Source: an uncultured delta proteobacterium (lineage in GTDB: Bacteria > Myxococcota > Myxococcia > Myxococcales > Anaeromyxobacteraceae). From it: a DNA stretch of 64,000 bases. The position numbers were made by a program, and so were the translations under genes. The stretch covers positions 82,659-146,658 of the forward strand of contig CAWHDZ010000031.1 in assembly GCA_963828255.1 (NCBI GenBank), in the 5' to 3' direction. The notes beneath the pieces were generated by a model. The model was not told where the DNA came from. It ran no database searches and was given only the letters and a program-made list of their open reading frames with translations. Shown here in pieces: positions 55,687-58,390 of this stretch (its first letter is position 1; every line of letters begins with the position of its first letter).

Positions 55687-56994
55687 ATGCAACCACTCCG
55701 CTCCCTCCTCCTGGCCACCCTGCTCGCCGCTCCCGCGCTCGCCGGCGCCGCCGGCCCGGACTGGATCTCCGACGACTGGCCGAAGGCCCTCGCCGAGGCC
55801 AGGGCCCGCAAGGTCCCGGTCTTCGTCGACACCTGGGCCCCCTGGTGAAAGACGTGCAACTTCATGCGCGCCACGGTCCTGCGTGACCCGGCGCTCGTGA
55901 AGATGGCCGGGCGGTTCGTCTGGCTCGACATCGACACCGAGAAGGAAGCCAACGCCGGGTTCCTCGAGAAGTTCCCCATCGAGGTCTGGCCCACGTTCCT
56001 GGTCATCGACCCGGTCACCGAGAAGCCGGTGCTCAAGTGGCTGGGCACCGCCACGGCGGAGGACCTGACCCGGCTCCTCGCCGACGGTGAACGTGCGGTG
56101 AAGGGCGGGGCCGGGGAGGGCGCGGATGCGCTGCTCGCCCGGGGCGACCGCGAGAACGCCGCCGGGCGCACCGCCGAGGCGGTCCTGCTCTGGGAGAAGG
56201 CGCTCGCCGCGGGTGGGCCGAAGTGGCCGCGCCGGGCGCGGACGCTCGAGTCGCTGGTCATCGGGTTCCAGTCGGCCGGCGAGCCGCGCCGCTGCGCCGA
56301 GGCGGCGCTGGCCGAGGCTCCCGGAATGGTGCGCGGACAGTCCTTCGCCAACGTGGTGTCGCTGGGGCTTGCCTGCGCCAACGATGCCGACGCCCCCTGG
56401 GCGAAGGCGGCCGCGGCGGGGCTCGAGCCGCTGGCCGTCGAGGCGGTGAAGCTCCCCGGCGTCCTGGCCGACGACCGGGCCGGGCTGTACGACGCTCTCG
56501 CCGCGGCCCGCACGAAGGCCGGCGACGAGAAGGGGGCGAGGGCCCGCACCGAGGAGGCCTGGAGGTTCCTCGTCGCGGAGCGCGCCGCCGGCAAGACCCC
56601 GGAGGCCCGCACCATGCTCGACTCCTGGATCGTCGGCGCCGCCATGGACCTGCAGGACCCGGGGCGGGCCGTGCCGCTCATCGCCGAGTCGGAGAAGGCC
56701 GCGCCGAAGGACTACAACCCTCCCTTCCGGCTCGCCATCCTGTATCTGGAATTGAAGCGGACCGACGAGGCCCTCTCGGCGAACGGCCGGGCGCTCGCCC
56801 TCGCCTACGGGCCGCGGAAGATCCGCGTGCTCACCCAGCGCTCCTCCATCCTGGAGGCGAAGGGCGACGAGGCGGGCGCACGAAAGGCGATCGAGGAGGC
56901 CATCGCCTACGCCGGCACGCTGCCCAGGGCCCAGCGGAATCCCCGGACCGTGCAGCGGCTCGAGGCCCGCCTGAAGAAGATGCAGGGCGACTAG
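55687..56994 (+). CDS. Exported thioredoxin-fold + TPR protein, candidate selenoprotein (UxxC, Sec at codon 54), 435 aa
   Basis: ATG 55687 is in frame with ORF 55864..56994. It gives signal peptide [19 protein letters not shown], then [28 protein letters not shown](55846-55848)-KTC-NFM, later cis-Pro WPTFLVID and TPR-like helices. Confidence 0.85.
55860..55902 (+). promoter_or_regulatory. Candidate bacterial SECIS hairpin for the thioredoxin gene
   Basis: CTTCATG/CGTGAAG, GCGCC/GGCGC and GGTC/GACC nested stems begin 12 nt after the TGA. An alternative apex is CACG-GTCCTG-CGTG. Confidence 0.55.
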
Positions 56995-57764
56995 AAGGCG
57001 AAGCCCACCTGCCCCACCGCCGAGGTGGCGCCGAAGGGCGCCCACTCCACGAGGAGGTCGATGCCGAACGGCAGGCTGGCCGCCACGCCGAAGGCCACCT
57101 GCCAGTGGGCCACGTCGGTGCCGGTGACGGAGGCGCCGCCGAGCTGCCAGAAGACCGGACCGCCGAAGACCTTGGCGCCCACGTAGGGGGCGACGATCCC
57201 CGCGATGGACTTCCCCGCGCTCGCCGAGAGGCCGGCGTCGAGGGAGGTGAGCGGGGCCTTCACCCCGCCAGGCCCGGTGGTGTTCACGCCGGAGGCGGCC
57301 AGGCTGGCCGACAGAGCCACGAAGGGCCACGGACCGCTGCCGTCCAGCGCCATCCAGGTCGCGCCGAGTCGCACGAGCCACCCGGGGTCCATCACGTAGG
57401 TGGCCCCGCCGGCGTCGATGCTCCCCGAGATCACGGCGCCCGCGCCGGCGGTCACCGACCAGGCCCGATCGAGCTGCCGGGTGACCGACGCGGCCACGCT
57501 GCGCTGGACGAACGGGGCGCTGACGTCGCCGAAGCGCAGCTCCGATGCCAGCCAGCCGTAGGCGGCGGCCACCCGCCAGACCGGCGCGGGCGCAGTCGCG
57601 GTACCCGCCGGGTCGGCGCCGTCGTCGGCGTCGCACACCCTCCTCGCCATCGCCGTGGGACCCACGGGCGCGGAGACGCCTCAGCCGAAGGCGTCGCGCG
57701 GGAAGGCGAGGGCCAGCGCGGCCACCCCGAGGAGGGCCGCGGTCCGTACCGGGGGGACGCGCAT
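56991..57764 (-). CDS. Outer-membrane beta-barrel protein, candidate selenoprotein (Sec at codon 28, first residue after signal peptide), 257 aa
   Basis: ATG 57764 lies 2 nt after the upstream gene's TAG. MRVPPVRTAALLGVAALALAFPRDAFG-TGA(57683-57681)-GVSAPVGPTAMARRVC continues in frame into ORF 56991..57665, with amphipathic beta-strands and C-terminal GQVGFAF. Confidence 0.75.
57640..57675 (-). promoter_or_regulatory. Candidate bacterial SECIS hairpin for the beta-barrel gene
   Basis: mRNA UGA-GGCGUCUCCGCGC-CCGUGG-GUC-CCACGG-CG. The perfect 6-bp stem spans 57653-57667, with GGUC at positions 22-25 counting U of UGA as 1. Confidence 0.65.
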
Positions 57765-57766
57765 CC

Positions 57767-58390
57767 CTACTTCACCAGGATCTGCGCCTTCACGAGGTCG
57801 GCCACCAGCTGCGCCGACAGCGACTGGGCGGCGCTCTGGGCGTCCTGGACGTTGAAGGTGTTGGACTGGCCGCTCCACACCAGCGACTCGGGGAGGGCGT
57901 GGGTGGAGTAGACGTTGGTCTCGGCGAGCACGTTGGTCTGCTCGGTGATGTAGCCCGGGGAGTAGACCGCGCCGTAGCCGTAGCCGTACGCGCCGTAGTA
58001 GCCGCCGTAATAGGGCGCGGCCGGCACGTAGGTCATGCTGGGCGGCACGTACTCCTCGGTGGTCTTCTTGGTGAGCCGCTGCACGATGACCAGGTCGACC
58101 TTGTTCTCGGCCACGTACTGCTTCACCTTCTCCTTGTCGAGCTGGCCAGGCGGGAAGACGCTGGCCGAGGTGGAGGCCTGGAAGCCCTTGTTGATCAGCG
58201 CCTGGGCGAGGCCGTTCTCGAACTGGACCCGGTACATGTCGTTCGGCATCACCCCGATGATGAAGATGCGGCTCACCGGCTGCGCCCGGTAGTTGGGATC
58301 GCGCCAGGTCTGGACCAGGTTGGTGGTGGTGCAGGAGGAGATCACCAGGACGGCCAGGGCGGGAACGATGGCGCGGAGCAACGTCTTCAT
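57767..58390 (-). CDS. Lipoprotein of unknown function (DUF4136-like)
   Basis: Lipobox ISSC, Tyr/Gly-rich loop YYGGYYGAYGYGYG, and ETNVY...LVWSG. Confidence 0.8.
   Translation of the reverse strand: MKTLLRAIVPALAVLVISSCTTTNLVQTWRDPNYRAQPVSRIFIIGVMPNDMYRVQFENGLAQALINKGFQASTSASVFPPGQLDKEKVKQYVAENKVDLVIVQRLTKKTTEEYVPPSMTYVPAAPYYGGYYGAYGYGYGAVYSPGYITEQTNVLAETNVYSTHALPESLVWSGQSNTFNVQDAQSAAQSLSAQLVADLVKAQILVK

Follow-up and report, generated by a model that had tools for sequence, protein, structure and literature searches.

What does it mean that two genes, each with a single early in-frame TGA, stand tail to tail and overlap in their stop codons? The question is raised by a locus in a 64,000-nucleotide (nt) stretch of DNA, here called the window, from an uncultured delta proteobacterium of the Anaeromyxobacteraceae (contig CAWHDZ010000031.1, positions 82,659 to 146,658). 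Gene 1 (55687..56994, plus strand) encodes, when TGA is translated as selenocysteine (Sec, U), an exported protein of 435 amino acids with a thioredoxin domain and a TPR-like region, termed thioredoxin-TPR in the following. Gene 2 (56991..57764, minus strand) encodes a predicted outer-membrane beta-barrel of 257 amino acids. The lipoprotein gene upstream of it (57767..58390, minus strand), which has a weak likeness to DUF4136, stops 2 nt before the barrel start. A first-pass annotation had described both frames with their single TGAs, the tight coupling of the barrel and lipoprotein genes and the overlap of both TAG stops in one CTAG (56991..56994), and these descriptions proved correct. It had gone on to propose an envelope redox module in which a UxxC thioredoxin services the Sec/Cys pair of the barrel, with the lipoprotein as a partner. 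Our analysis leads to another reading: both TGAs almost certainly encode Sec, the barrel is likely a new selenoprotein family, and the two genes are likely independent selenoprotein genes that lie tail to tail. The explanation we favor overall, with moderate confidence, joins this independence to a barrel whose Sec/Cys44 pair would act at the pore, where it would capture a thiophilic substrate or gate it by redox chemistry.

The TGA of the barrel gene (57681..57683, minus strand) corresponds to Sec28. At the DNA level it is present in 14/14 genomes of the two genera g1 and g9 in which the N-terminus lies on a contig, and 38 further barrel loci have TGA (37) or TGC (1). Barrel loci in another order carry Sec in 29 cases and Cys in 28, with one locus unreadable. 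Among 122 distinct homologues the residue at the position of Sec28 is Sec in 90, Cys in 30 and another residue in two; that is, a conserved in-frame UGA is aligned with the Cys of homologues. The same picture extends to distant homologues (records titled Polyangiaceae, Kofleriaceae, Haliangiales and Krumholzibacteriota), where A-x-A is followed by UG or CG.

The barrel UGA is followed by a hairpin (57652..57668, minus strand) with the GG of its top 18 nt behind the UGA. The rule for bacterial selenocysteine insertion sequences (bSECIS) in Fig. 2 of PMC13188914 asks for G in loop positions one and two, a distance of 16-37 nt from the UGA and a stem of 4-16 bp. The barrel hairpin agrees with this, having its loop 18-19 nt from the UGA and a covarying stem of 6 bp. 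Covariation amounted to 24 double-change cells in 19 sequences, a value reached in 0/500 shuffles, and slid controls were lower. The Gly codon of the hairpin is GGT in 77/77 Sec forms as against 4/31 Cys forms, and GGT makes up 11% of the other Gly codons in the same genes. Of the loci in the other order, 28/29 Sec forms and 0/28 Cys forms passed the hairpin test.

The form of the barrel also follows the host's selenium machinery. In one order selA was found in 27/29 genomes with the TGA form and in 0/24 with Cys forms only; this comparison covers 53/55 barrel-bearing genomes, two with barrel fragments being left out. The corresponding figures were 12/14 and 0/4 in a second set, which has three genomes in common with the first, and 35/36 and 0/1 in a third. 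In a tree of the 122 barrels (a quick, midpoint-rooted run with the first 22 residues removed and the careful search unfinished) the 30 Cys forms fall in two clades among the 90 Sec forms. On this tree Sec looks like the ancestral state, and Cys barrels may have arisen mostly where the Sec machinery is missing.

Some observations weigh against so simple a picture. Because the Cys forms fall in about two clades, the selA correlation represents few events and should not be counted as 53 independent tests. No selA was detected in four TGA-form genomes (G097, G105, G305 and G498; completeness is 96% for G305 and not stated for the other three). The +1 residue is Gly or Thr in three other members of the family, and a few homologues carry Gly, Thr or Ser there. 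The host genomes of these three (L031, L033, L034) contain selA. The Thr-form barrels have neither the second Cys nor H220, and the product of the gene immediately downstream of them looks, from a motif, like MsrA. As a side observation, Sec and Cys barrel paralogues occur together in G474, G491, G498 and G097 (L208/L227, L210/L226, L212/L228 and L178/L220), which lend themselves to a comparison of both forms.

For gene 1 (U54, motif WUKTC; 55846..55848, plus strand), where Sec would be the first residue of UxxC, the codon is conserved among orthologues and has Cys counterparts. A near-full-length thioredoxin-TPR is present in 63/92 genomes of the family, with one TGA in 60 and none in three. 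The active site of the 44 loci read is WUxxC in 41 and WCxxC in three; the three orthologues lacking TGA carry WCPxC. In other families the active site was Cys in 21/21 readable loci (22 fetched), and within the genomes searched no family but this one showed the Sec form. The product matches Pfam Thioredoxin_7 (PF13899) over residues 26-109 with 45.3 bits (cut-off 27). TPR matches are weak and stay below the Pfam cut-off, the signal peptide was read by eye, and no NCBIfam model attains its cut-off with this product. Having a thioredoxin domain with UxxC and Cys homologues, gene 1 is, judged by sequence, an exported Sec-thioredoxin of an already known kind. It shares the domain, the WUxxC and the Cys homologues with the thioredoxin-fold UxxC selenoproteins in Table 1 of PMC13188914 (Trx, PF00085; thiol:disulfide interchange protein, PF13098). 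In contrast to these, it adds a signal peptide and a long TPR-like region and lies below all NCBIfam cut-offs. PMC1794560 gives two Sec-thioredoxins for Anaeromyxobacter dehalogenans, one of which may be the orthologue of gene 1.

The first-pass annotation had seen a GGUC-containing hairpin behind each TGA. The hairpins are real, but that of gene 1 has its GGUC in the stem, and a better SECIS candidate follows. The first hairpin (55863..55899, plus strand; z = -3.05) has the loop CUGCGU and shows some covariation, with 78.9% of cells paired and 23 double-change cells in 31 sequences. It is within the 16-37 nt range, yet its predicted loop has no G at positions one and two; it is likely a spacer hairpin and possibly part of the SECIS. 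The second hairpin (55906..55924, plus strand) has 8 bp and a G-GUU-C top and is predicted in 37/37 Sec-form loci; its GG-loop form was found in 0/24 of the Cys-form loci read. All of its 248 cells are paired (248/248), with one double change only and thus little covariation. Its Gly codon is GGG or GGA in 31/31 sequences and never GGC, which accounts for 53% of Gly codons genome-wide. At 64 nt from the UGA, in contrast to the 16-37 nt of the bSECIS rule, this second hairpin is the best candidate SECIS of gene 1. Whether a SECIS at a distance of 64 nt, with a spacer hairpin in between, is usable by SelB could thus be tested cleanly on this gene.

The host has what both genes would need. SelA, SelB and SelD were found above profile cut-offs, selD carrying a TGA of its own, and a tRNA-Sec gene, its features read by eye, lies on contig C23. 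A second 'tRNA-SeC' call on contig C30 sits in coding sequence and looks false. The selA match (G000:C27:221662-223047; L009, L010) is split in two, both parts lying in a single long open frame. Many members of the family show such a split match, which suggests an insertion peculiar to the lineage near model position 160. Further in-frame TGAs with hairpins lie in the genome (G000) at C3:30374 (SelD), C7:198587, C21:14013 and C38:24730. From their motifs we take the last three to belong to a peroxiredoxin (TPGU), FdhA (RVUHGP) and a DsbA-like protein (UPFC), respectively; the SelD label is not an assumption of this kind. Together with SelD, gene 1 and the barrel this makes at least six Sec genes by two heuristic scans. 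No further convincing in-frame TGA was found in the window, in line with the first-pass annotation; the scans are heuristic, and both missed known Sec cases. Since the presence of selA (305/401 sampled Myxococcota genomes) does not predict that of the barrel (73/401), the barrel is outside the core Sec machinery.

Could the two TGAs nevertheless be nonsense mutations or assembly errors? Nearly all database homologues of the barrel do start 3' of the TGA and are recorded as hypothetical proteins of about 219 amino acids. This truncation by gene callers arises because the UGA falls directly after the signal peptide, and a widespread selenoprotein family has thereby been shortened. That an identical codon recurs in dozens of genomes across phyla, with Cys counterparts, SECIS covariation and selA tracking, contradicts the error explanation and makes it extremely improbable; the earlier argument against nonsense mutations is borne out by the conservation of both TGAs in relatives. 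By these comparisons both TGAs are real and not artefacts, and their decoding as Sec may be taken as close to certain.

Is the adjacency of the two genes then the sign of a module? Barrel and thioredoxin-TPR are neighbors in two genera only. In g1, the genus of the window, both Sec genes are in direct contact in 10/12 barrel-bearing genomes (in one the barrel has another neighbor and in one the contig ends), and in two further g1 genomes the lipoprotein gene lies beside the thioredoxin gene with no barrel. In g9, a sister genus, one gene, which we presume to encode an O-methyltransferase-like protein from its motif, separates barrel and thioredoxin-TPR in 3/3 genomes. Across the family the recurrent order is GGDEF, an rlmL-like gene, a variable slot and the convergent thioredoxin-TPR (names partly from reading translations). 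The slot holds lipoprotein and barrel only in g1 and g9 and other genes in other genera. The CTAG overlap itself is ordinary: by a heuristic gene-end scan it is the commonest convergent spacing in this genome, occurring 31 times among 282 convergent pairs (35 with any four-base overlap), and the convergent ends in relatives have gaps of 9-10 nt or an intervening gene instead.

The distribution of the two genes, on which the first-pass annotation had staked its model, is largely independent. No barrel was found in 46/63 family genomes with thioredoxin-TPR. Thioredoxin-TPR is present in 58/59 other barrel-bearing genomes, with Cys in 9/9 loci read there, and two single-contig genomes have a Sec barrel 0.59 and 1.28 Mb from a Cys thioredoxin-TPR. 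It is also present in 31/46 more distant barrel genomes, with an in-frame TGA in none, and was found at E<=1e-20 in 0/8 genomes of the Krumholzibacteriota-type barrel group. Hence the Sec/Cys states of the two proteins, whose co-variation had been suggested as a check, do not co-vary: elsewhere the barrel is mostly Sec, and a thioredoxin-TPR, where there was one to be found, has Cys and is not linked to it. The surroundings of the barrel are not conserved either, as 101 flanking open reading frames of 57 barrel loci fell into 86 clusters, with single ArsD, MerR, TerC, MntP, redoxin and glutaredoxin genes among many unrelated ones.

The lipoprotein also fits poorly as a partner. Its close homologues are confined to g1 and g9, where each genome has several paralogues, it is kept where the barrel is missing, and it was not found beside distant barrels. 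Probably it is co-transcribed with the barrel here and is not a family-wide partner. The paralogues (including those at G000 C9:33849 and C8:136904) form a small family with a Tyr/Gly-rich insert that is expanded in g1 and g9.

A dedicated module, with the U28/C44 pair as the specific target of reduction by the UxxC thioredoxin-TPR and the lipoprotein as a partner, would draw on the direct adjacency in g1 and near-adjacency in g9, on both proteins being exported Sec proteins there, and on the thioredoxin-TPR homologues somewhere in most other barrel genomes. The conservation of two adjacent Sec genes in 10 genomes of one genus is indeed modest evidence for a link: by our own estimate, taking 6-11 Sec genes among about 3,800 genes (PMC1794560 gives 11 for a relative), a single barrel placement would have a Sec neighbor with a probability of about 0.3-0.5%, or 10-20% over the about 40 placements seen. 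Against the module stand the many thioredoxin-TPR genomes with no barrel, the placement of the barrel in a variable slot, the Sec barrels far from Cys thioredoxins, the eight genomes in which thioredoxin-TPR was not found, and the lack of a common transcript for convergent genes. Co-directional linkage and co-occurrence as in a tso-like operon or module were not found, the genes being convergent and neighbors in two genera only. The identities of the proteins as a UxxC thioredoxin and an outer-membrane barrel with U28/C44 thus hold, whereas their grouping with the lipoprotein into a three-gene redox module does not sit with so loose a linkage. We regard the dedicated module as improbable and its absence as highly probable, although thioredoxin-TPR may service the barrel in a non-exclusive way. 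Two Sec genes can be neighbors without forming a module.

What, then, is the barrel? Two AlphaFold2 models (mean pLDDT, i.e. predicted local confidence, 91) are all-beta, with ten long strands by our count in mature residues 36-229 and a C-terminal Phe. A closed amphipathic barrel with an even number of strands, a C-terminal aromatic residue and a signal peptide is what the predicted model shows, and with high confidence we take the gene 2 product to be an outer-membrane barrel. The predicted signal peptide (residues 1-27; 57684..57764, minus strand; read by eye) is of the signal peptidase I type and ends in PRDAFG. In homologues the residues before U/C are mostly A-x-A following a polar stretch. 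Because A-x-A directly precedes U/C, the mature chain (230 amino acids) is predicted to begin with Sec. It is followed by a near-invariant Gly and later by a second Cys, Cys44 in this protein (57633..57635, minus strand). This Cys lies 11-16 residues past U in 61/61 Sec forms, 10-15 residues past U/C in 57/57 loci of another order, and 11-15 residues away in 29/31 database Cys forms. Conserved polar residues of the barrel are D176, R178, R/K198, D217, H220, Q222, D236, E240 and E246, accompanied by many invariant Gly; the barrel of the window has neither R178 nor E246, which most relatives possess.

The family is large: a profile of the barrel collected 480 clusters at 50% identity, and beside the 73/401 sampled Myxococcota genomes given above it was found in 55/251 genomes of another order. 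Pfam gave only weak generic barrel matches in 6/142 family members, NCBIfam one or two chance matches, and the PDB no sequence match. The 119-family table of PMC13188914 names two outer-membrane barrel families of selenoproteins, and none could be matched to this barrel. These are the GSU2204-family CXXCH protein (MtrB/PioB-type, NF041027) and the FCYXU-type TonB-dependent receptor (NF049945), which in Table 1 of that paper resemble our barrel in being exported beta-barrels with one Sec and Cys homologues. Both models gave 0 matches at E<=0.01 among the barrel alignments A3 (142) and A4 (136), and in contrast to these types the present barrel is small, with about ten strands and Sec as the predicted first mature residue. 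No description of the family was found in the open literature searched, most subscription papers lying outside the search. The barrel is therefore a probable uncatalogued selenoprotein family, and we did not find, in the PMC13188914 catalogue, any other mature outer-membrane barrel that starts with Sec.

The closest natural fold matches of the models were a Dot/Icm porin, OmpT and OpcA (Z 14.2-14.8, 7-10% identity). The likeness to the omptins OmpT and Pla (7xw0: Z 14.6, root mean square deviation 3.7, 195 residues aligned) and to OpcA (2vdf: Z 14.2, 3.6, 183 residues) is one of fold; identity is 8-10%, and our barrel adds an N-terminal Sec/Cys tether of about 24-35 residues. Omptin proteases have catalytic Asp-Asp and Asp-His pairs; no barrel member matched an omptin family in Pfam. 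A second likeness is to barrels with their own N-terminal segment in the pore, namely COG4313/PF13557 channels (Pput2725, 4rl8), FapF and autotransporters with an N-terminal plug, with whose N-terminal segments the model aligns from residues 1-6 onward. These have lower Z values (about 9 for 4rl8 and 11-13 for autotransporters, versus 14.6 for ten-stranded barrels), our barrel has fewer strands, and 0/142 members match PF13557. For autotransporter barrels, NalP and AIDA-I among them, the alignment of both models starts at residue 1-2 and covers the segment within the pore, a weak sign that the N-terminal segment enters the pore. No fused longer form of the barrel was found, which is a weak negative.

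A possible sequence of events can be drawn from these features. SelB would read the barrel UGA, and signal peptidase I would cut directly before Sec, leaving it with a free amino group. The BAM machinery would insert the barrel by its C-terminal Phe. The Gly/Pro-rich N-terminal tether would start in the periplasm and probably run into the Gly/Ser-lined lumen, near the conserved polar cluster (D176, R/K198, D217, H220, Q222, E240; R178 and E246 in most relatives). Sec1 would act as a reactive selenolate and the second Cys would resolve it or co-ligate, so that a flexible tether situated at or in the pore would carry a pair that is redox-active or binds metal. The likeliest predicted substrates are soft metal(loid) ions or sulfane sulfur and selenium species. 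The pair could be reset by general periplasmic reductases, among which the neighboring thioredoxin-TPR may be one, though not a dedicated one. Capture or gating of a thiophilic substrate by the barrel seems to us moderately probable. Three points count against it: the 30 N-terminal residues have a pLDDT of 38-68 in both models, so that their placement in the lumen is weak (with deeper N-terminal coverage in the second run, residues 1-10 rose from 38 to 55); that the conserved polar residues face the lumen, mostly at its outer end, was deduced from strand alternation and not from coordinates; and no metal or selenium theme appears among the barrel's neighbors.

Other roles for the same features have to be weighed against capture or gating. 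The U28-C44 pair could be purely structural, a selenenylsulfide staple closing an N-terminal plug loop. The protein would then be a small channel or adhesin, and selenium would serve only to speed or stabilize the making of the staple. Retention of both residues together at a variable spacing of 10-16 residues would fit, and the periplasm oxidizes Cys pairs. Yet Sec is the majority state (90/122), the conserved polar residues suggest a binding site, and Sec is costly and found mostly at redox or metal-binding sites (PMC13188914, section 7), all of which leaves the staple an unlikely explanation. Still less likely is an outer-membrane enzyme in which an acyl or similar group is attacked by N-terminal Sec/Cys1, whose amino group is free, with help from the conserved Asp/His/Glu/Arg cluster. 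The +1 residue is U, C and rarely S, T or G, D176, D217, H220 and E240 are near-invariant, and barrel enzymes (OmpT, Pla) are among the close fold matches; but a second Cys conserved along with it suggests redox or metal chemistry, no solved structure was matched by sequence, identity to omptins is 8-10%, and fold alone shows no function.

U/C at +1 before a near-invariant Gly would also suit a seleno-lipoprotein, in which the lipidated Sec/Cys anchors the barrel. The preceding residues, A-x-A with an often charged x behind a polar stretch with Pro or Arg that follows the hydrophobic core, speak against this, such ends fitting signal peptidase I and not a lipobox, as does the co-conserved second Cys; we consider it very improbable. 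A bolder form of the capture reading is a selenol shuttle across the outer membrane. The tethered N-terminal Sec would reach through the ten-stranded pore to the Asp/His/Glu/Arg site, load a soft metal(loid), sulfane sulfur or selenium species or reduce an extracellular disulfide, and pass it to Cys44 and periplasmic thioredoxins, Sec being ancestral. We regard this shuttle as speculative and rather unlikely. For chemistry of thiols and selenols at the outer membrane the barrel is a candidate open to testing; for Geobacter, a different organism, PMC13510729 describes the crossing of the outer membrane by sulfur species as unresolved.

At the locus itself no Rfam match, sigma-70 promoter or intrinsic terminator match was found. 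Contigs from RNA libraries span a large part of gene 1 as well as portions of the lipoprotein gene and of the barrel start; as contigs they cannot show transcription. The locus occurs a second time in the assembly, on contig C32, and this copy is probably not a paralogue, as it falls inside a contig-end overlap of 10.7 kb (G000:C32:1-10704 = C31:135936-146649) that duplicates the locus. Many contigs have such end overlaps, which may inflate the contamination figure of 6.6%. In G063 a second contig-end copy of lipoprotein and barrel start (L063, in the region G063:C7:8454-10287; L036) is probably an assembly overlap as well.

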